Source: Patescibacteria group bacterium
GTDB taxonomy: Bacteria; Patescibacteriota; Patescibacteriia; Patescibacteriales; UBA12465
NCBI GenBank assembly: GCA_049317985.1
Contig: JBMOHF010000001.1
Coordinates: 25,605 to 89,604, forward strand
Length of the DNA stretch: 64,000 nt
Reading direction: 5' to 3'
The notes below the pieces were generated by a model. The model did not search any database and was not told the origin of the DNA. It saw only the letters and a program-made list of their open reading frames with translations. This document shows, piece after piece, positions 30,520 through 38,828 of this stretch; the stretch's first letter is position 1, and each line of letters starts with the position of its first letter. Both the position numbers and the translations under genes were made by a program.

Positions 30520-31332
30520 ATGTTTGTTTATTTATCCCTTTTTCTAGTTGCGCTTTGTGTTGTTTGGATTTTTTTGATTGTGTCTAAAAAGTTTACAACC
30601 CTTGCTTTGCTGGATCTTGACCATTTACCTGGTCATCGGGAGGCAAAATTCAAAAAACAGATTATTACTAAACGTTTAGATCGAGATTTGGAAAAACTTT
30701 CGGGGCTTTTGGGCCGTTGGCGTTTATTTTTAGAGCGACGGACTGGTTCTTTCTTGCACCAACTTCACCTACGCCTTGAGCACTCAAAAGAATATTATCT
30801 TCAAACCAAAAAATTGACGCTGGGAGAGCGGCAAGCAAAAATATCAGCTTGGTTTAGCGAAGCCAAGGAGGCTGCAAAAAAAAGTGATTACGAGAAAGCA
30901 GAAGAACTTCTGATTGCCATAATTACTCTCGATCATCGTTATCTTCCGGCTTTTGTCGAATTGGGGGATGTCTATTTTGAACTCAGAAAATATTTAGAGT
31001 CAAAACAAACTTTTGCTCATGTCCTAAAAGTTTTATCAAAAAAAACTGTTAATGATTTTTCTGGTTATCGTACCAAAAAGGAGCTTTATTTTTCCTTAGC
31101 ACAAGCGAATCAGCAATTAGGAAATTTTGATGAAGCAATTGATAATTTACACGAGGCCCTTGAAATAGAAGCAAATAATCCGCGTTATCTTGATTTAATT
31201 TTGGAATTAAGTATAATAAAAAAAGATTGCGCCCTCGCCGAGAGTGTTTTATCTCGTCTAGAAGAGTCAAACCCAGAGAACCAGAAAATTAACGACTTTC
31301 GTGCTCGTCTCAGAAAAATTACTGGTCTTTAA
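30520..31332 (+). CDS. Membrane-anchored TPR-repeat protein
   Basis: N-terminal TM helix and at least two TPR-like units (YEKAEELLIAIITLD, GNFDEAIDNLHEALEIEANNP). Confidence 0.6.
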   Translation: MFVYLSLFLVALCVVWIFLIVSKKFTTLALLDLDHLPGHREAKFKKQIITKRLDRDLEKLSGLLGRWRLFLERRTGSFLHQLHLRLEHSKEYYLQTKKLTLGERQAKISAWFSEAKEAAKKSDYEKAEELLIAIITLDHRYLPAFVELGDVYFELRKYLESKQTFAHVLKVLSKKTVNDFSGYRTKKELYFSLAQANQQLGNFDEAIDNLHEALEIEANNPRYLDLILELSIIKKDCALAESVLSRLEESNPENQKINDFRARLRKITGL

Positions 31333-31343
31333 GTTTTGTATTT

Positions 31344-31416
31344 GCCGTTTTAGCTCAGCTGGTAGAGCACTTCCATGGTAAGGAAGAGGTCTCGGGTCCG
31401 ATCCCCGAAAACGGCT
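31344..31416 (+). tRNA. tRNA-Thr (anticodon GGT)
   Basis: Acceptor GCCGTTT/AAACGGC, anticodon arm CTTCC-ATGGTAA-GGAAG, T arm TCGGG-TCCGATC-CCCGA. Position 55 is unusually C. No encoded CCA. Confidence 0.85.
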
Positions 31417-31428
31417 CAATGAAAAAAA

Positions 31429-31449
31429 ACACCGAAGAGGTGTTTTTTA
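31429..31449 (+). terminator. Rho-independent terminator after tRNA-Thr
   Basis: Stem ACACC/GGTGT followed by a T-run. Confidence 0.6.
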
Positions 31450-31490
31450 ATAAAAAAACCGTCACTTTTCAGGGCGACGGTATGGTTTTT

Positions 31491-32156
31491 TTATAAACCA
31501 AGTTCTTTTTTTCTTTGGTCAATCTCTTTTTTACACTGGAATTCGATTATTTTCACATTATTTTGATGCTCCTGATCGATCGCGTTGATTGTATTTTCGT
31601 ATTTTCTTTGCGCATCTTCTTTGGTTTTAGCACAAATATTTTTTGCTTTTTCCTCAGTATTTAGGAAGATTTTGACCGCCGGTCTTTTTTCTAATGTTCG
31701 TATTTCCTCGGTAAACATGATGCAGTCATATTTGCGGTATAGTGAGGTGGCAGCTATTTTTTGAAAACCCTCCGGGTCACTTTTTTCTAATTGTTTTAGA
31801 GCTGCAATGACTTTAACGTTTGCATCTTCGTCGGCTTCTTCATTGATTATTTGTTTTCTGTGTCCTGCCTCTTCTTTGAGCAAATATTTCTTATCAATTA
31901 GTGATTGAATTATTTGGTCAACTCTTTGATAACAGTCTAATTCGTAAGTGTGAATCTTCTGAAGTTTTAACTTTTGATTAATTGTCGTTGTGTCACAAAG
32001 ACTTTCTGCTTTGGTAATCAACAATTCATTTAATTCGAGGTTTCTACTTTCTAGCTCGGCATTTTTTTTCTGAGCAATTTTAATTTCGCTTTTTCCGCAA
32101 GAAACGGCGGTTAAAATGAAAATCAAGACGGTTAATGTGACAGTTAATTTTTTCAT
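31491..32156 (-). CDS. Hypothetical coiled-coil lipoprotein
   Basis: Signal peptide with lipobox LTAVSC. The remainder is charged and helical. Confidence 0.55.
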   Translation of the reverse strand: MKKLTVTLTVLIFILTAVSCGKSEIKIAQKKNAELESRNLELNELLITKAESLCDTTTINQKLKLQKIHTYELDCYQRVDQIIQSLIDKKYLLKEEAGHRKQIINEEADEDANVKVIAALKQLEKSDPEGFQKIAATSLYRKYDCIMFTEEIRTLEKRPAVKIFLNTEEKAKNICAKTKEDAQRKYENTINAIDQEHQNNVKIIEFQCKKEIDQRKKELGL

Positions 32157-32367
32157 GGTTTGTTTCCTTTTTTCGTTTATTTTATTGTTAAATAATTAGT
32201 TTTTACGCTAACTAGCAAAATTACCATAAATACGTAGAATGTCAAATATATTAACTTTATCCACCGAATATCTGCAAAAATTATGGCTTATATTAAATAA
32301 ATTTTAACCATAGCATTGACAAGCAGTTAAAATTATGATATAATAATGTTAATCAAATGAGCATTGG

Positions 32368-33474
32368 ATGCTGAGGCAAAAAATGTTATTTAACAATAAA
32401 ATAAACGAAAAAAAACATAAGATCATGAAAAAGAAAAATAGTTTGCTGTGGATAAAGTTTTTTGTCATCAGCGCTTTCAGTATTGCAATAATTGCGCTTA
32501 TTCTTTCAATATTTTTGAAAGGGTATATGCCGATTATTTGGTTAGCGAGCGGAGCATTTTACATCCTCCTTAGTGCCGGTGTTTATTATCGAACTTGGCA
32601 ATTTTGGAGAAATAAAAAAAAGGCTGGGTTTGTAAGTGGGTATGTTGCCCTCTTAGAGTATGTCGGAAATTATAATGGAGATTTGAGAAACTCATTAGAA
32701 GAAGATACGGACGGAGTCATTTATCCTGGTCCTCACTGTTTCTTTAATCTATTCCAAACCTTTGAAGTTCATCAAGAAAAAGGAGAGGATATGTACTATT
32801 CTTTAGAACTAGACTATGTCGACCTGTTTCAGGGGGAGGCGGATTATGTAGAATTTAAAGGTGGGCAAGAAGTAAAGTTTCTGAATGCCAGTCTCCGATT
32901 TAGAATCGTAGATCCACGTAAGGTGGCGTATAAAATTGAAGATTACACCAAATATCTCATTGGTGAATCTGAAGACGCTATTACGTTGTACTGTAAAACT
33001 ATTGAATTTGAAAAAACGGCCGAAACTGATTTTCCGGTAAAAGTGATGAATTTAATGGATAAGGATCAAATCAAAGCTGATTATGGTTTAGAACTTGTAA
33101 ATTTTTCTTTTTCTCGTTTTCAATTTTCTGCAAAAACCAGAGAGATGGAAGATTTAAAAGAGAAGGCTGAATACGAGATTAAAGTAGAAGATGATGCTTT
33201 TAAAAAAGCAGAAAAAGAGCAAAAAAGAGTGATCGTTGAAGCCGCAACGCAAATTATCAGAAATGGTCCAGAATTGGATAGACTTGAAAAGTTAAAGGAA
33301 AGCTGGCTAACACCAGAAATTTTATTAGCGAATGAAGATTCGCAAAGAAAGTGGACAGCAATCGGTAAAAATCAAAATGTTACCGTTATCCTTGATGATA
33401 GCAATAATAGTCTAACGTCTCTTGGTGCTAAATTTGGTATTGGGACGGAGGCTGCAAAAAAAGAAAAGAAATAA
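32368..33474 (+). CDS. SPFH/band-7-like membrane protein (tentative)
   Basis: Two N-terminal TM helices. The segment PGPHCFF...ASLRFRIVDPRKVAYKIEDY resembles the SPFH core, and the C-terminus is coiled-coil. The start is uncertain (an alternative MKKKNSLLW lies 19 codons in). Confidence 0.4.
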   Translation: MLRQKMLFNNKINEKKHKIMKKKNSLLWIKFFVISAFSIAIIALILSIFLKGYMPIIWLASGAFYILLSAGVYYRTWQFWRNKKKAGFVSGYVALLEYVGNYNGDLRNSLEEDTDGVIYPGPHCFFNLFQTFEVHQEKGEDMYYSLELDYVDLFQGEADYVEFKGGQEVKFLNASLRFRIVDPRKVAYKIEDYTKYLIGESEDAITLYCKTIEFEKTAETDFPVKVMNLMDKDQIKADYGLELVNFSFSRFQFSAKTREMEDLKEKAEYEIKVEDDAFKKAEKEQKRVIVEAATQIIRNGPELDRLEKLKESWLTPEILLANEDSQRKWTAIGKNQNVTVILDDSNNSLTSLGAKFGIGTEAAKKEKK

Positions 33475-33500
33475 AAATACAAAAATTGGAGGATTAAAAA

Positions 33501-34199
33501 ATGGCAAGATCAACAGATCTAGGGAAAACAACCCCTGGGGCAAAGAAAGTAGAAGAAATATTAGATAACAAAGAAGTGGGAGAAAAATCAACAAAAGAAA
33601 AACTGATTGAAGAAAAGAAAAATTTGCCTTCAGTTGCTGATTTATTTAAAATTGTTCTTTCCTTCGCTATTTCTCTCGGAGTATTTATGCTCTTCAGAGA
33701 TGTATTGTTAAAAGAAATCGGAATGTATTTGCTAAGAAGTTTAGCTGCGTTGTTTGTTTCATTCCTAGCACTTGGCGCTATCAGTTTGGCAATTAGTAAG
33801 CCAACCACAATTGGGGTTCCGGTGGTAGTATGGTTGTTCTTCTGGTTTTTTCTGGGAATATTCATTCACCAAGAACCAAAAAAGGATGAGCCAGCGCCCA
33901 CACCAATAGAAAATGTTTCTGTCAGAAATCCAGAAATTCAAACTCTAGATGTCGGTAGTCACTCTTTCTTCTTAAAAAGCGGGGAAGAGCTTGGACCACT
34001 AAAAGCGATTGATGACCTAAAATTTACCTGGTCTATTCGATCATCATTAGATAAGAATTACTGGACAATAAGTTTAAATAACGGCACGCCACTTGATGGT
34101 TTAACCATGAAAGTGTTGCCTTTGCTCGACGGATCTACTTCTTTTGTAGTGAAAGCTACAAAAGATCAAACAGTAACAATAGATATTGTTCCTGAATAA
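33501..34199 (+). CDS. Hypothetical membrane protein (3 TM helices plus a C-terminal beta-rich domain)
   Basis: 232-aa ORF starting 26 nt after the SPFH-like gene. A terminator follows at 34208-34238. Confidence 0.55.
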   Translation: MARSTDLGKTTPGAKKVEEILDNKEVGEKSTKEKLIEEKKNLPSVADLFKIVLSFAISLGVFMLFRDVLLKEIGMYLLRSLAALFVSFLALGAISLAISKPTTIGVPVVVWLFFWFFLGIFIHQEPKKDEPAPTPIENVSVRNPEIQTLDVGSHSFFLKSGEELGPLKAIDDLKFTWSIRSSLDKNYWTISLNNGTPLDGLTMKVLPLLDGSTSFVVKATKDQTVTIDIVPE

Positions 34200-34207
34200 A
34201 ATAATGA

Positions 34208-34238
34208 GGCTCGCAAAAACAAATGCGAGCCTTTTTTC
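34208..34238 (+). terminator. Rho-independent terminator
   Basis: Stem GGCTCGCA/TGCGAGCC followed by T6. Confidence 0.8.
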
Positions 34239-34283
34239 TTTTTTATTTTTATGTTATTATAGAAATATAATTGGTAATTATCT

Positions 34284-34709
34284 ATGAAAAATTTTTTTCT
34301 CTCAATCTCTTTTGTGTGTCTGCTTCTTGCGCTCACCTTATCTCCAGGTTTATCAGTCCAAGCTGCTTCGGTAAGCGGTCCAGGAAATACTAATGGCGGG
34401 TCAACTGCTATTTCCGGTCCAGGAAACACGACTTGTTCTCCTAATAGTTCCACTCTTTGTAATCCACTGGGTCAAAATACAACGGTATATTCATTAGTTG
34501 GCCGAATCATTTCTGTTATTCTCGGTCTGGTTGGGTCTATTGCCCTGGTGATGTTTATATATGGCGGTCTCCTTTGGATGACCTCTGCTGGAGCCGCTGA
34601 TCGCGTCAAGAAGGGGCGGGAAGCAATTCTTTGGTCAGTTATTGGAATGGCAGTTATTTTTGCTTCCTATGGCCTAACAAAGTTCTTAATCGAAAATATT
34701 ACCACTTAA
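34284..34709 (+). CDS. TrbC/VirB2-type (T4SS-pilin-like) small membrane protein
   Basis: Signal peptide, then CNPL...two hydrophobic helices with the MFIYGGLLWMTSAGAADRVKKGREAILWSVIG pattern typical of this small-protein family. Confidence 0.5.
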   Translation: MKNFFLSISFVCLLLALTLSPGLSVQAASVSGPGNTNGGSTAISGPGNTTCSPNSSTLCNPLGQNTTVYSLVGRIISVILGLVGSIALVMFIYGGLLWMTSAGAADRVKKGREAILWSVIGMAVIFASYGLTKFLIENITT

Positions 34710-34783
34710 ATACACTATTCCGGTTATTCTGTCGCTATTAAACAATATTTTTAAAGTCATTCGCTATCGAATGGCTTTTTTAT

Positions 34784-34812
34784 TTGACAAGCGTGATGAT
34801 ATTTTTTATGAT
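34784..34812 (+). promoter_or_regulatory. Near-consensus sigma70 promoter driving the tRNA-Tyr locus
   Basis: TTGACA-17 nt-TATGAT. The predicted start lies a few nt before 34824. Confidence 0.65.
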
Positions 34813-34823
34813 GTTGTGGTATT

Positions 34824-34912
34824 GGGTCGATACCGAACCCGCCTTATGAGGGCGAGGGCGGTCAACCGGGGCAGACTGTAAACCTGCCTGCCGGCAGGCA
34901 GGTCTGCTGGCT
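34824..34912 (+). pseudogene. tRNA-Tyr 5' fragment (nt 1-49) interrupted by two exact 20-nt GC-rich hairpin insertions
   Basis: 49/49 identity to 34952-35000 once CCCGCCTTATGAGGGCGAGG (34838-34857, D-loop) and the perfect palindrome CCTGCCTGCCGGCAGGCAGG (34883-34902, after anticodon-loop nt 38) are removed. No T arm or 3' acceptor strand follows. Confidence 0.8.
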
Positions 34913-34951
34913 ATCAATACAAAGTTCGTTGTTCAGGTAAATAAACATAAA

Positions 34952-35034
34952 GGGTCGATACCGAAGCGGTCAACCGGGGCAGACTGTAAATCTGCTGGCT
35001 TACGCCTTCGTAGGTTCGAATCCTACTCGGCCCA
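34952..35034 (+). tRNA. tRNA-Tyr (anticodon GTA), class II long variable arm
   Basis: Acceptor GGGTCGA/TCGGCCC, anticodon arm GCAGA-CTGTAAA-TCTGC, variable arm TGGCTTACGCCTTC, T arm GTAGG-TTCGAAT-CCTAC. No encoded CCA. Confidence 0.92.
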
Positions 35035-35044
35035 CAAATAAAAA

Positions 35045-35067
35045 ACAAGCGAAAGCTTGTTTTTTTG
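35045..35067 (+). terminator. Rho-independent terminator after tRNA-Tyr
   Basis: Stem ACAAGC/GCTTGT, loop GAAA, then T7. Confidence 0.75.
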
Positions 35068-35085
35068 TTTGTGGATTAAAAATGA

Positions 35086-35217
35086 GGATTCGAAAGCCGG
35101 ACCCGCTCTGGGCGGGGAGGCCGGGCTGGGGTGCTTGCTTTTCTATTTCTTCGCCAACTGGCAAAGAAATAGAAAAGCTTAGCAACCGGAGCAGAATCCT
35201 ACTCGGCCCACAAATAA
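35086..35217 (+). pseudogene. Scrambled tRNA-Tyr-derived, GC-rich structured segment ending in a perfect copy of the tRNA 3' end
   Basis: It starts GGATTCGAAAGCCGGA-CCCGCTCTGGGCGGGGAGG, related to the 5' end plus insertion 1 of 34824-34857. It contains a 15-bp hairpin at 35137-35178 and the sequence CAACCGGAGCAGA, which matches the D/anticodon-stem. The stretch 35194-35217 is 24/24 identical to 35018-35041. A terminator-like hairpin follows at 35220-35245. Confidence 0.55.
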
Positions 35218-35390
35218 TAATCCTGTCTTTTTGGCGGGATTTTTGTTATAATTTCTGTACTATTATTTTACTATTTTTATATTATGCAGCTAATTAATCA
35301 CGATAAAATTGGTCGTAGCTTTCTGAAGATTTTTGCGGGTGAGTTCGTTTTAATAATCATTATTCTTTTTGTTTTAATTTTGATGTAAAT

Positions 35391-36263
35391 ATGCCAGAAT
35401 TGCCAGAAGTAGAGACCGTGCGCGCTGACTTAGCGGTTCTCTTGAAAAACAAGAAGGTTCTTGGTGTTGAAATTTTATCATCAAGATCAGCCCAGCCTTC
35501 GCCCGAGTTCATCCAAAAAAGTTTAGTTGGTCGCTCTTTTTTAGGGGCGGATCGTTTGGGAAAACTTCTTATTTTCCCCCTTGATAAAAAGCTATTTTTG
35601 TTGGTTCATTTAAGAATGACCGGGCAATTAATTTATCTTGATCAGTCTGGATTACATGCCGGAGGACATTCTGATCAAAATAAGAAAGAAGATTTTTCCG
35701 CGAAAGATCTACCTAATCGGCATACAAGAATAATTCTTAATCTTTCTGGAAAATCCGTTTTGTATTTTAATGATTTAAGAAAATTTGGTTTTCTTCGCTT
35801 GGTTGATCAAACTGGTTTGGCGCAAGCCAAAAAATCATTTGGGGTTGAACCATTATCATCTGAATTTACTGCTTCTGTATTTGATAAAATGCTCCAAGGA
35901 AAAAAACAGAAAATTAAACCATTCTTATTGGACCAAAAATTTATTGCTGGTTTGGGTAATATTTATGTTGATGAATCATTGTTTGCCGCAAAAATTCGAC
36001 CAGATCGTTTAGCCGGGTCATTGTCTCACTTGGAGATACAAAAGTTGCACGATGTTATTCAAGAAATCATTAAAATGGCAATCAAGTTACGTGGGACTAC
36101 TTTTTCCAATTATCTCGATAGTCGAGGGAAAAAGGGAAATTTTTCCTCCAAACTTCAGGTTTATGGTCGCGGGGGGAAGGACTGTTTGGTTTGTGGTAGT
36201 AAAATTCGTAAGGTCCGTTTATTTGGACGGGGAACTCATTTTTGCGAAGATTGCCAGAAATAA
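35391..36263 (+). CDS. mutM: Formamidopyrimidine-DNA glycosylase
   Basis: N-terminus MPELPEVETVR and C-terminal zinc finger CLVCGSKI...HFCEDCQ. Confidence 0.9.
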   Translation: MPELPEVETVRADLAVLLKNKKVLGVEILSSRSAQPSPEFIQKSLVGRSFLGADRLGKLLIFPLDKKLFLLVHLRMTGQLIYLDQSGLHAGGHSDQNKKEDFSAKDLPNRHTRIILNLSGKSVLYFNDLRKFGFLRLVDQTGLAQAKKSFGVEPLSSEFTASVFDKMLQGKKQKIKPFLLDQKFIAGLGNIYVDESLFAAKIRPDRLAGSLSHLEIQKLHDVIQEIIKMAIKLRGTTFSNYLDSRGKKGNFSSKLQVYGRGGKDCLVCGSKIRKVRLFGRGTHFCEDCQK

Positions 36264-36366
36264 ATTTAATATTAAGAACTTTGTAACCTTAATAATATCA
36301 AATAATTTGACTTTTACTCCCCGATGTTATATTTTAATATTGTAATATTTAAAGGAAAAAACCAAT

Positions 36367-36522
36367 ATGTCCCAAGATAACATGATCAAGCTTGAGTGTA
36401 CGGAGTGTAAGACCGTTAACTATTTTTCCCACAAAAATAAGAAAACTCTCAAGGAAAGGTTAGAAATGAAAAAGTTCTGCCCAAAATGTGGCACTCACAC
36501 CATGCATAAAGAAACGAAATAG
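36367..36522 (+). CDS. rpmG: 50S ribosomal protein L33 (51 aa), absent from ORF track
   Basis: Hand translation gives [51 protein letters not shown]. This matches the L33 pattern (CxxC...CPKCxxHTxHKExK). Confidence 0.85.
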
Positions 36523-36535
36523 TCGTTTGTTCTAG

Positions 36536-36563
36536 ACCCGCCCGTACGGCGGGTTTGGTTTTG
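36536..36563 (+). terminator. Rho-independent terminator after rpmG
   Basis: Stem ACCCGCC/GGCGGGT followed by TTGGTTTT. Confidence 0.7.
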
Positions 36564-36599
36564 TCTAAAACTTAAAACTTAAAATTAGCTAAAATCCCC

Positions 36600-37718
36600 A
36601 TGCCAAAAAATTTTGCTAAACCATTCTTAGTCTCTTTAGTTCTTTTAACTATTGTGGCTTGTTATTTTGTTTTTAGGCCGTTTTTAATTGAGATTGTCAT
36701 TGCAGCAATTCTTTCAACAATATTTTATCGCCCCTATGTAAAATTGGCGAAGTTTTTGGGTAACAAAAAGAATCTAGCTGCTCTTTTGATGTGCCTTCTG
36801 TTAGTGGCGATAATTATTTTGCCCACAGTTAAAGGGCTTATTTATGCCGGAAATAAATCAGTCGATGCTTATGCAGATGCAGTAAGTTATTTTTCTAATC
36901 ACAACGCTTCAGATTTACTTCAAACTCCACTAGCGCAAAGGCTTCAGCTTAGCAATCTTAATCTGGTAAATTTTAGCAAAGGAACCTTTGGAAATGTTCT
37001 CTTGGGTTTCTTTGAAAAATCTAGTAATTGGCTGATTTCTGGCGCAACTTCCACTTTAATCCAGACCACCAATTTTATTGCCTCGCTCTTCATAATTATT
37101 ATCACCATGTTTTTCTTCTTTGTTGATGGTAAAAAAATGCTAGAGAGTCTTATGCATCTATCTCCCTTACCAGATAAATATGATCGAGAAATATTTCAGA
37201 AATTTAAAGAGGTAAGCTACACCACGATGGTTTCCACTTTTGTGGTGGCGATTGCTCAAGGGATAGTGGGGGCAATTGGTTTTGCTGTCGTTGGTTTTCC
37301 GGCTTTTTTGGCGGGGGTATTAGTAGCTCTTTTATCGCTCTTGCCTTATCTTGGTTCAATGATTTTTTATATTCCCGTCGGACTGTACTATTTGTTGATG
37401 GGAGAAATTTGGCAAGGAGTCTTTGTTCTCGCTTGGGGATTTTTAATAATTGGTACTATCGATAATGTCATTAGAGCTTGGATGCTCAAGGATAAGGCTC
37501 AGATTAATCCTATCTTTGTGGTCTTTTCCGTGTTAGGAGGTATTATTTTATTCGGTTTTTGGGGAGTTGTTCTAGGCCCCCTAATTGTTTCGATTGCGGC
37601 AACTATTTTACATATTTATGCATTAGAGTTTTGCGAGGAGTATGACGCCTCAGAAGACAGCCTTGGCACACTACTGGATGGGAAGAAGGGAATCAAAAAA
37701 CACAAACATAATAATTAA
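36600..37718 (+). CDS. AI-2E (PerM/UPF0118) family transporter
   Basis: 372 aa with about 8 helices and a family-typical layout (…LSLLPYLGSMIFYIPVGLY…, GPLIVSIA). Confidence 0.75.
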   Translation: MPKNFAKPFLVSLVLLTIVACYFVFRPFLIEIVIAAILSTIFYRPYVKLAKFLGNKKNLAALLMCLLLVAIIILPTVKGLIYAGNKSVDAYADAVSYFSNHNASDLLQTPLAQRLQLSNLNLVNFSKGTFGNVLLGFFEKSSNWLISGATSTLIQTTNFIASLFIIIITMFFFFVDGKKMLESLMHLSPLPDKYDREIFQKFKEVSYTTMVSTFVVAIAQGIVGAIGFAVVGFPAFLAGVLVALLSLLPYLGSMIFYIPVGLYYLLMGEIWQGVFVLAWGFLIIGTIDNVIRAWMLKDKAQINPIFVVFSVLGGIILFGFWGVVLGPLIVSIAATILHIYALEFCEEYDASEDSLGTLLDGKKGIKKHKHNN

Positions 37719-37729
37719 TACTCATACTT

Positions 37730-38260
37730 ATGTTAGGAGAAAAAACTAAAAAAAATTTAGAAGCGGCCTTTGCTGGCGAATCAATGGCGAGAAATAAATA
37801 TGATTATTTCGCGAGCATTGCTTTGAAAGCCGGTTATGTCCAGATTGCTAATATTTTTGAAGAAAGTGCTCGCAATGAAAAAGAACACGCCAAGCTTTGG
37901 GCTAAACAACTAGATATTATTAGCGAAGACGTCGTCTCCAATCTTAAAAAGGCAATTGAGGGGGAATTGTTTGAAACTAATGAAATGTATCCAAAAATGG
38001 CTGAAGAAGCAGCCGCAGAAGGGCACAACGACATTGCAAAGTTATTTAAGGGGGTTGCTTTAGCCGAAAGAGCGCATGCTACTCGTTACCAAAAATTATT
38101 AGAAAACTTGGAAAAGGGCGAAGTCTTTAAAAAACCAACGCCAGTCCGTTGGAAATGTAATAATTGTGGATATATTCATGAGAGCAATGAAGCCCCAATG
38201 ATTTGTCCTTCTTGTTTACATCCTCAGGCTCATTTTGAAATTTTTATCGAAACCTATTAA
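37730..38260 (+). CDS. rbr: Rubrerythrin
   Basis: Diiron ferritin-like N-domain (NLEAAFAGESMARNKY, EKEHAKLW, ERAHATRY) and a C-terminal rubredoxin-like CNNCGY...CPSC. Confidence 0.88.
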   Translation: MLGEKTKKNLEAAFAGESMARNKYDYFASIALKAGYVQIANIFEESARNEKEHAKLWAKQLDIISEDVVSNLKKAIEGELFETNEMYPKMAEEAAAEGHNDIAKLFKGVALAERAHATRYQKLLENLEKGEVFKKPTPVRWKCNNCGYIHESNEAPMICPSCLHPQAHFEIFIETY

Positions 38261-38271
38261 ATTAAAATATT

Positions 38272-38412
38272 ATGAGTAATCGAATAAATAAAACCTATTT
38301 TTGTCGTCATTGCGGTAATGAAGTCTCCTTCGTTAAAGATGGTGGTGGAAAGTTAATTTGTTGCGGTGAAGAGATGATGGTCAAAAAAGAAGGTTTTAAC
38401 GGGGAAGAATAG
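38272..38412 (+). CDS. Desulforedoxin-like mini-protein (46 aa), absent from ORF track
   Basis: Hand translation gives MSNRINKTYFCRHCGNEVSFVKDGGGKLICCGEEMMVKKEGFNGEE. This matches the CxxCGN...GGGxLxCCGExM pattern of desulforedoxin and the Dfx N-domain. Confidence 0.7.
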   Translation: MSNRINKTYFCRHCGNEVSFVKDGGGKLICCGEEMMVKKEGFNGEE

Positions 38413-38440
38413 GAAAATATCCAAAAAAGGATTTTTTGAA

Positions 38441-38468
38441 AAAGAAGCACAAATTTGTGCTTCTTTTC
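38441..38468 (+). terminator. Rho-independent terminator
   Basis: Stem GAAGCACA/TGTGCTTC followed by TTTTC. Confidence 0.7.
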
Positions 38469-38494
38469 TAATTTTAGCAAAATTATGTCAGCTA

Positions 38495-38523
38495 TTGACA
38501 AGTTTCTGTATTTATTATACAAT
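38495..38523 (+). promoter_or_regulatory. Sigma70-type promoter for 38547-38828
   Basis: TTGACA-17 nt-TACAAT. Confidence 0.55.
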
Positions 38524-38546
38524 ATAATAACAAAAACCAGAAAGCC

Positions 38547-38828
38547 ATGAAAGAAAACTCCAAAACTGATGAATCCCCAAATAGGGGAAACAAAAGAACT
38601 GAAGCAATTATTTCCTGGGACTTCCTGGGAAATATAATCTCAGTGCAAAACTGGGAAGAAGAAAAAAAAATAAATTACCACGGAGTAGTTTTAAGAGGTC
38701 CAAAAGACCGAATAAAGCTTCGAGGTAATCTCAAGGAGCTCATCAAACGAGCGACTATGGAATGGGAGGAATTAACTCCCGCACAAAAGAAAAGAAATTC
38801 GATGAAAATTCTTTTGTGCAAAAACTAA
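38547..38828 (+). CDS. Hypothetical protein (93 aa)
   Basis: ORF bracketed by a good promoter and a terminator hairpin (CTCTAATC/GATTAGAG). No family recognised. Confidence 0.5.
   Translation: MKENSKTDESPNRGNKRTEAIISWDFLGNIISVQNWEEEKKINYHGVVLRGPKDRIKLRGNLKELIKRATMEWEELTPAQKKRNSMKILLCKN

Follow-up and report, generated by a model that had tools for sequence, protein, structure and literature searches.

A tRNA-Tyr locus of a Patescibacteria genome with partial gene copies and a dispersed miniature palindrome

Layout of the tRNA-Tyr locus

The window analyzed here is a 64,000-nt (64-kb) stretch of contig JBMOHF010000001.1 (positions 25,605 to 89,604) from the assembly GCA_049317985.1 of a Patescibacteria group bacterium, and our subject is its tRNA-Tyr locus, in which one intact gene (copy B) stands between a truncated 5′ copy that carries two 20-nt insertions (copy A) and a diverged downstream copy (copy C), with one promoter in front and the terminators T1 and T2 behind copies B and C, respectively (Table 1). 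Copy B is a class II tRNA gene with a long variable arm and a GTA anticodon, and CCA is not encoded. ARAGORN gives it a complete cloverleaf, and Rfam assigns it to RF00005 with 55.2 bits against a gathering score of 29. The original prediction for this DNA had called the intact gene at the same place; only its length for the AT-rich filler between copies A and B, 40 nt, has to be corrected to 39 nt.

The promoter that had been proposed upstream agrees with the consensus at 11 of 12 positions and is the only strong promoter-like site on the plus strand within 34650-35420. The earlier statement that nothing comparable lies directly before the intact gene thus holds, and the view of copy A as the 5′ leader of that gene is consistent with the promoter scan. 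Removal of CCCGCCTTATGAGGGCGAGG (insert 1) and CCTGCCTGCCGGCAGGCAGG (insert 2) from copy A leaves the exact first 49 nt of tRNA-Tyr (49/49), as had been claimed together with the length of exactly 20 nt for both insertions. Insert 1, whose hairpin is predicted at -8.7 kcal/mol, sits after nt 14 in the D-loop, and insert 2, a perfect 20-bp palindrome predicted at -13.9 kcal/mol, lies between the last base of the anticodon loop and the 3′ strand of the stem, a placement that had also been proposed and that the structure line bears out. For both, the placement is unambiguous and there is no target-site duplication. Copy A ends in the loop of the variable arm and lacks nt 50-83; it is not a tRNA gene, and neither ARAGORN nor Rfam makes a tRNA call on it even when both inserts are excised. 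Neither insert has a further copy in the window with up to 4 mismatches allowed, nor was any comparable GC-rich hairpin insertion found elsewhere in these 64 kb. The filler 34913-34951 has no significant similarity to the leader or to other parts of the window, and the A-B and B-C spacers are not alike.

Copies of a gene placed side by side might result from repeats that were joined wrongly during assembly, and short-read contigs do end within copy B (one stops at 35005 and another begins at 34981), as is typical of repeats. Against such an artefact, the independent Logan assemblies SRR30676220 and SRR30676216 reproduce 33351-35005 and 33906-34908 with 100% identity, and a third Logan contig covers 34981-39263. 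These three contigs from two runs and the contig of the metagenome-assembled genome (MAG) are 100% alike over copy A, the filler and the start of copy B, and again over the end of copy B, T1, copy C, T2 and mutM; moreover, they share a 25-nt overlap of unique order, and the inserts lie within uniquely anchored sequence. We regard an artefact as extremely improbable.

Table 1 Features of the tRNA-Tyr locus and their positions in the window
Feature	Position	Strand	Description
Promoter TTGACA-17-TATGAT	34784..34812	+	sigma-70-type; 11/12 consensus matches; ancestral to the tRNA-Tyr unit
Copy A	34824..34912	+	tRNA-Tyr nt 1-49 with two 20-nt inserts
Insert 1, CCCGCCTTATGAGGGCGAGG	34838..34857	+	GC-rich hairpin in the D-loop, nt 14/15
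Insert 2 ('PAL'), CCTGCCTGCCGGCAGGCAGG	34883..34902	.	perfect palindrome at the anticodon loop/3′ stem junction
AT-rich filler A-B	34913..34951	+	39 nt; no promoter-like site
Copy B, tRNA-Tyr(GTA)	34952..35034 (ARAGORN 34952-35034/35)	+	sole intact gene at the locus
Terminator T1	35040..35072	+	11-bp stem followed by a T run; directly 3′ of copy B
Copy C	35044..35217	+	diverged paralogue of the promoter/leader and tRNA unit, by alignment, fold and repeat
Hairpin 3, CCCGCTCTGGGCGGGGAGG	35102..35120	+	inside copy C, at the equivalent of nt 14/15
AT-rich 15-bp (+3) hairpin	35137..35178	+	inside copy C
24-nt 3′ repeat, GAATCCTACTCGGCCCACAAATAA	35194..35217	+	T-loop to the tRNA 3′ end and a 7-nt trailer
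Terminator T2, AATCCTGTCTTTTTGGCGGGATT and a T run	35219..35247	+	hairpin 35219-35241; ancestral terminator
Small open reading frame, 34 aa, hydrophobic, MQLINHDKIGRSFLKIFAGEFVLIIIILFVLILM	35284-35388		stop 2 nt before the mutM start

Copy C and the downstream block

The block downstream of copy B had been noticed before as a GC-rich island in AT-rich surroundings, and its GC content of 0.51-0.56 indeed contrasts with 0.37 for the window. The suggestion that it begins like the tRNA 5′ end followed by a related hairpin is strengthened by alignment: 35044-35125 is collinear with 34786-34870 through the promoter/leader, the 5′ part of the tRNA, the D-loop hairpin and the motif CCGGG, with a score of 50 against 27 ± 5.4 for shuffled sequences, none of 1000 of which reaches it. 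In order, copy C consists of a leader-like part (35044-35085), the tRNA 5′-like GGATTCGAAAGCCGGA, hairpin 3 at the D-loop site, the long AT-rich hairpin, CAACCGGAGCAGA, which equals tRNA nt 20-32 at 12 of 13 positions, and an exact 3′ end. An internal deletion from the end of the anticodon stem to the T-loop, joined at a GA microhomology, has removed the anticodon loop through the T-stem. The 24-nt copy of the tRNA 3′ end and trailer is exact (35194-35217 equals 35018-35041, 24/24), as reported, and it extends no further on either side; the two copies lie 152 nt apart. The 15-bp hairpin and the terminator-like hairpin that had been described in the block are both present, the former with no other copy in the window. 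Hairpin 3 and insert 1 share their ends (CCCGC...GGGCG..AGG). Copy C folds better than shuffled sequences (z = -5.6), and it gives no tRNA call and no Rfam match; at the whole locus, only the tRNA of copy B matches an RNA family. A source for the filler, T1, the GC-rich block and the long hairpin was sought within the window and the fetched loci, and none was found. The block and its 24-mer are, on this comparison, a third copy of the unit with a decayed leader and not random GC-rich DNA.

The ancestral state in related genomes

Loci of relatives were retrieved through MutM proteins of 60-80% identity, which gave five related lineages (L004/L005/L006, L007, L008, L263 and, in part, L261). A separate scan of contigs for MutM was saturated by the universal MPELPEVE motif; its best match had 47% identity, and no close relatives were obtained from it. 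The gene order pilin of the type IV secretion system (T4SS), tRNA-Tyr, small open reading frame (ORF), mutM is common to all five lineages, each of which has a single uninterrupted tRNA-Tyr gene that is identical to that of the window or differs by one base: the genes of L004 and L008 match copy B completely, and those of L007 and L263 each depart from it by a single base. The same TTGACA-17-TATGAT promoter directly precedes the single gene in L004, L007, L008 and L263, and mature tRNA position +1 lies 11 nt past the -10 box in the relatives and in copy A alike. On the other side, the tRNA gene of L004 is directly followed by ATCCTGTCTTTTTGGCAGGATTTTTGTTATAAT, whose ortholog in the window is T2, placed behind the 24-nt fragment; L007 keeps a remnant of it. 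A T1-type terminator also follows the tRNA gene in L007 and L261. In comparison (window 35040-35072, L007:3795-3830 and L261:28-60, which read CAAGCGAAAGCTTG, CAGGCATTAAGCCTG and CAGGCTTTTGCCTG, respectively), differences among the T1-type stems look compensatory, and L004 has no T1 and only the second terminator.

None of the five sampled relatives contains the fragments of copies A and C, so that conservation of the fragments, on which the original prediction had left the matter to a comparison of related genomes, was not found. Because T2 directly follows the tRNA in L004, the promoter and T2 of the window are the two flanks of one ancestral gene, and all that lies between them is therefore a lineage-specific rearrangement. 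The 24-nt repeat is the original tRNA 3′ end, still joined to its ancestral terminator; its position relative to T2 matches that in L004. This assignment of the flanks and the occurrence of the palindrome in unrelated genomes, described below, go beyond what had been noted before.

Predicted transcript and the role of copy A

In the equilibrium fold of the predicted primary transcript (34819-35072, 254 nt), the 3′ strand of the acceptor stem of copy B pairs with the 5′ strand of copy A with a mean probability of 0.96 and with its own 5′ strand with a probability of 0.02. The hairpins were considered as folding insulators and rejected in that role, as the probability of the pairing between copy A and the acceptor is 0.96-0.97 with or without them. 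Such a fold might be expected if copy A, copy C or both were functional tRNA-like leader or trailer RNAs acting as a processing decoy, a competitor for RNase P or a regulator of tRNA-Tyr maturation, as one of three options in the original prediction had it. With only one promoter, copies A and B have to share a transcript, the tRNA portions of copy A are free of any change, and its 5′ strand competes for the acceptor in the predicted fold. The region also folds better than shuffled sequences (z = -7.6), which is expected of any tRNA with terminators and palindromes. The fragments are, however, absent from the five sampled relatives, an outcome that the original prediction had listed as counting against it, and so offer neither conservation nor covariation as evidence; they match no Rfam family, copy C is degenerate and lies behind a terminator, and removal of the hairpins in silico leaves the predicted competition unchanged. 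When JGI metagenome contigs were scanned for copies of the tRNA-Tyr of the window with an interrupted D-loop, all 7 matches proved to be chance occurrences in GC-rich coding DNA. A function of this kind thus seems very unlikely to us.

Occurrence of the palindrome in other genomes

The original prediction had also raised the question of whether the two 20-mers form dispersed repeats. Both are single copies in the window, and the answer differs between them. The sole exact viral match of insert 1 lies, by inspection, within an ORF for a capsid-like structural protein of a phage and was treated as chance. Insert 2, in contrast, was found at 42 exact sites in 39 distinct contexts among IMG/VR contigs, whose GC content ranges from 38% to 68% and which belong to different phage types. 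The same 8-nt arms with any other 4-nt center occur in only 9 distinct IMG/VR contexts, and two control palindromes matched in composition and period, CCGTCCGTCCGGACGGACGG and the version with swapped halves, GGCAGGCAGGCCTGCCTGCC, have no match in IMG/VR. At the 39 distinct sites, conservation of the flanks is limited to a purine bias at -1, the target is not duplicated, and no conserved GTAG/CGTC tetranucleotide was found, with a GTAG tag only at L117. Several copies lie between phage genes, shortly 5′ of start codons. The exact 20-mer is absent from the INPHARED cultured phages and from the PLSDB plasmids, where only partial or mismatched matches occur.

Degenerate and multi-copy variants exist as well. 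One contig (L119) contains 8 full or degenerate copies, 1 of them exact, in 10 kb, and in another (L130:3926-4125) about ten 21-nt units of a degenerate palindrome, CCATGCCTACCGGCAGGCAGG, stand in tandem at a contig end. Such variants are expected of a repeat family. Insert 2 belongs to a family of palindromes dispersed across genomes, and we class CCTGCCTGCCGGCAGGCAGG as REP-like miniature palindromic DNA, after the repetitive extragenic palindromes (REPs). A longer parent element bounded by terminal inverted repeats was considered and rejected, as all 'solo' half-sites proved to be degenerate full copies. Among the 25 listed of the 42 Pfam families matched by 135 ORFs within 3 kb of the palindrome at 47 loci there was no Y1_Tnp or other transposase, and no family recurred; clustering by blastp likewise yielded no linked mobilizing gene, as its groups comprised a DNA methylase and shared proteins of phages (portal, capsid). 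A search of the literature returned no match for the sequence CCTGCCTGCCGGCAGGCAGG and no description of such inserts.

In a GC-rich phage contig (L097:10590-11760), the palindrome or a variant occupies every intergenic gap, where it lies within longer hairpins of short repeats of the GGTGAGA/GGTTAGA type, just 5′ of the next start codon.

Palindromes in other tRNA genes and the breakpoints of the window

Three contexts of the palindrome are tRNA-derived, namely the window, a phage tRNA-Met gene and a provirus-like contig. In two related phage contigs (L121:2239-2330 and L098:8570-8650), the palindrome forms an artificial long variable arm of tRNA-Met and lies exactly between GAGG and TC in the variable loop, as a precise 20-nt insertion. 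ARAGORN still calls a tRNA in L121. The copy in L098 has lost the 5′ strand and loop of its T-arm immediately behind the palindrome and is thus a pseudogene. No insert is present in any of 94 further viral tRNA-Met genes that share this anticodon arm.

The third context (L128:480-1465; IMGVR_UViG_3300035537_000177) begins with a TATAAT box, behind which stands a duplicate of exon 1 (nt 1-33) of tRNA-Thr(CGT) with the palindrome precisely inserted in its D-loop. An uninterrupted exon 1 lies 330 nt downstream, behind a GIY-YIG ORF (PF01541); a group I intron (RF00028, 86 bits), which holds an ORF that reads as HNH-type by eye, separates it from exon 2. The locus has a fragment of the RecR gene on its upstream side and is directly adjoined downstream by a large serine recombinase and provirus-like genes. 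The duplicate starts at tRNA position +1 (within 1 nt) and ends exactly at the 5′ splice site of the intron. L128 may thus be taken as a parallel to the window, by analogy, in that the palindrome marks a promoter-proximal, redundant 5′ duplicate that starts at +1 and ends at a position of RNA processing or a loop.

Seven breakpoints can be counted in the window: 0/1, where the duplicated segment starts; the insert sites 14/15 (twice) and the junction of the anticodon loop and the 3′ stem; the truncation at 49/50 in the variable-arm loop; and the two deletion ends, at about 32/33 and in the T-loop. All 7 fall in loops or at helix ends, as judged from the cloverleaf structure and the sequence. 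By our own count, about 54% of the junctions would qualify by chance, which gives a probability of roughly 0.01 for 7 of 7; the restriction is suggestive, not decisive.

The positions of the breakpoints could be explained if a tRNA gene or RNA was broken at its exposed loops, nuclease-resistant hairpin DNA (the palindromes) was captured in the repair, and a new 5′ part was resynthesized from a processed tRNA template, so that the hairpins and the duplication would belong to one episode and the hairpins would not be later colonizers. The duplicated segment would then start at mature +1 because it was copied from processed tRNA, and it does begin at +1 in the window as well as, within 1 nt, in L128, where it ends at the 5′ splice site. 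The absence of substitutions in copy A despite two rare insertions points in the same direction, as does the exact boundary of the palindrome, which has no flanks and no target duplication wherever it was found. Copy C, however, includes promoter-like sequence and so has no processed RNA as its source, the sample consists of two loci, and selection for a complete copy B itself limits where a duplicate can start. No gene for a reverse transcriptase or nuclease is present among the 10 ORFs scanned in 30520-38828, and we know of no pathway that inserts a fixed 20-mer. We consider such a repair-coupled, structure-directed origin unlikely.

The serine recombinase and provirus genes that adjoin the palindrome-bearing duplicate in L128 also bear on another option of the original prediction, that of att-site duplications. 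Elements that target tRNA-Tyr would have left direct repeats and then have been mostly deleted, and the 24-nt repeat does have the length and placement that are usual for the core sites of integrases: it extends from the T-loop to a point 7 nt beyond the 3′ end, and its copies enclose 152 nt of DNA that looks foreign. This option fits only that repeat. The 10 ORFs in 30520-38828 include no integrase or mobile-element domain, the gene order is unbroken on both sides in comparison with the relatives, and no viral contig was found with the 3′ end of the tRNA of the window. The intervening 152 nt are a decayed local copy of the promoter and tRNA instead of element DNA, and integration at a 3′ end does not produce a displaced 5′ fragment next to the promoter. 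We give little credence to scars of integration.

A generic pattern for D-loop inserts was also run on viral contigs and rejected, since its matches were nearly all ordinary tRNAs with a further GAGCG downstream. The three exceptions are on contigs resembling giant viruses, one of them labelled GVMAG (L157:10779-10860, L241:3289-3370 and, on the minus strand, L173), with tRNA-Tyr-like genes that have a 20-21-nt AT-rich hairpin in the D-loop (for example CAGTTTAATTACTGCAACAAA), placed as TAGCTCAGTTGGTA|...|GAGCG, and an apparent intron after the anticodon.

Evolution of the locus

Taken together, the locus is probably a non-functional, lineage-specific scar of rearrangement of the tRNA-Tyr unit, into which REP-like miniature palindromes have been inserted. 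Among the options of the original prediction, that of decayed tandem tRNA copies colonized by palindromes comes closest to the evidence, which consists of the clean single gene in the relatives, the paralogy of copy C and the dispersal of insert 2. An ancestral unit composed of promoter, tRNA-Tyr and terminator or terminators, which every sampled relative keeps, would have been partly duplicated at least twice in the lineage of the window. The outer copies would have been truncated (copy A) or internally deleted (copy C, the older and decayed one), which would leave only the middle copy B complete, and the ancestral promoter would now abut the truncated 5′ copy and the ancestral T2 the 3′ end of copy C. 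The dead copies would have gained short GC-rich palindromes, two in copy A and one in copy C, and copy C also the longer AT-rich hairpin. Transcription would start from the single promoter, so that copy A would form a 5′ leader of about 130 nt, to be cut off copy B by RNase P; most transcripts would end at T1, and copy C would at best be transcribed by read-through. Neither the fragments nor the hairpins would have a function of their own. The anatomy of the locus, the ancestral state, the paralogy of copy C and the membership of insert 2 in a dispersed family are shown by the sequences; the order of these events, the neutrality of the fragments and the route by which the palindromes entered are what we infer from the comparison.

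Several observations weigh against this account. The neutrality of the fragments is an assumption, and the arrangement could affect maturation of the tRNA because the modeled fold pairs the 3′ strand of the acceptor with copy A. Copy A has no substitution in 49 nt and yet contains two insertions of a type otherwise absent from the 64 kb, which slow neutral colonization does not predict; this suggests that the hairpins came with the rearrangement itself or that a strong hotspot exists at this position. In copy C, a 5′ part that is about 30% diverged is joined to a perfect 24-nt 3′ end, a pattern that requires a mosaic history or gene conversion. The likeness of the leader alone (34786-34823) to the B-C spacer is weak, its score being reached by 16 of 1000 shuffles and by 2.4% of window segments, and T1 may be orthologous to the terminator of L007; the exact unit of duplication is therefore uncertain. 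Lastly, no mobilizing enzyme was found near the palindrome sites, and in the window the palindrome is a single copy.

Part of this evidence would be accommodated by a bolder proposal, which we hold to be rather unlikely. CCTGCCTGCCGGCAGGCAGG and its looser relatives, insert 1 and hairpin 3, might represent the smallest known class of DNA that is mobilized in trans or captured by repair, entering single-stranded loops without target duplication and spreading across bacteria of the candidate phyla radiation (CPR) and unrelated phages. The loops entered would be those of structured DNA or of intermediates templated by RNA, for example the D, anticodon and variable loops of tRNA and intergenic hairpins of phages. 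The A-B arrangement of the window and the exon-1 duplication of L128 would then have arisen when such hits on an essential tRNA gene were repaired and processed tRNA served as the template of the new 5′ part.

Comparison with known elements and implications

REPs and REPINs are mobilized by RAYT Y1 transposases (PMC3733652, PMC3116915, PMC2817692). The palindrome described here resembles them as a short (20-40 bp), GC-rich and mostly intergenic palindrome with degenerate copies, many per genome in L119 and L130, and with GTAG at L117. It differs from REPs in that CCTGCCTGCCGGCAGGCAGG is identical across unrelated contigs (38-68% GC) and is not a genome-specific family, that a conserved GTAG/CGTC tag is lacking, that the window has one copy in 64 kb, and that the palindrome of the window is a precise insertion inside tRNA-derived sequence. 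Near the 47 palindrome loci, no RAYT is among the Pfam families listed. Group I introns occur in tRNA genes of Patescibacteria (PMC13011429). The phylum is the same as that of the window, tRNA genes are likewise interrupted in loops, and L128 holds an RF00028 intron; the inserts of the window differ in being 20 nt long, in matching no intron model and in lying in an incomplete gene copy. With no RF00028 match in 34700-35350 at E ≤ 10, they are not introns.

Small hairpin modules that appear as clean insertions have precedents in the SDR elements of cyanobacteria and in the GC clusters and byp-like elements of AT-rich fungal mitochondria. These hairpins of about 20-50 nt also enter genes and repeats and, in AT-rich DNA, stand out as GC-rich islands. 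Each family is confined to one lineage and is multi-copy per genome, and GC clusters create target duplications. To our knowledge, no SDR or GC-cluster family has been described that is the same base for base in unrelated hosts or that favors tRNA loops.

In Escherichia coli, tyrT is followed by three distal repeat units of 178 bp, each with the last ~19 nt of tRNA-Tyr, which are attributed to unequal recombination or duplication. The unit 35044-35217 of the window also lies downstream of tRNA-Tyr and ends with the exact 3′ end of the tRNA, a similarity of arrangement only; it differs as a single unit made of a decayed copy of promoter and tRNA, with hairpins, an internal deletion and, near the promoter, an extra 5′ fragment. 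The direct repeat from the T-loop to a few nt beyond the gene resembles an att duplication made by an integrase, whereas the window has no element or integrase, an intact gene order and intervening DNA of local origin. In the literature searched, we found no description of a 20-bp palindrome that is shared across genomes and recurs, precisely placed, in the loops of tRNA genes and in displaced duplicates of such genes.

The locus illustrates one way in which a reduced CPR genome can have an essential tRNA gene rearranged, where the surviving working copy lies behind a long tRNA-like leader that could interfere with processing by RNase P. The 20-bp palindrome acts as a discrete unit of insertion in phages, proviruses and CPR bacteria that are unrelated and uncultivated, repeatedly in tRNA loops. 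Should enzymes be responsible for its spread, it would represent a minimal mobile DNA as well as a marker that links CPR hosts with their phages; if it is captured in repair, it would report on a repair pathway in unculturable organisms. For annotation, it is relevant that inserts and partial duplicates of this kind obscure tRNA genes or pass for them.

Host assignment and neighboring genes

The long-variable-arm tRNA-Tyr, MutM, the T4SS pilin and the sigma-70-type promoter fit a bacterial host, and, by MutM homologs, a Candidatus Falkowbacteria MAG is the closest named relative. NCBI MFZ4648072.1 is the protein that 35391-36263 encodes. A TATAAT box after copy C, overlapping terminator T2, serves the small ORF and mutM. 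The 34-aa small ORF is conserved, with its length and place unchanged, in L008, L264-L266 and others. Some relatives have an extra ORF of 144-184 aa without a Pfam match between tRNA-Tyr and the small ORF or mutM (L008:3270-3740, L263:2208-2762 and L089:1-435), and the intergenic region between tRNA-Tyr and mutM therefore seems to be a site of recurrent gain and loss.

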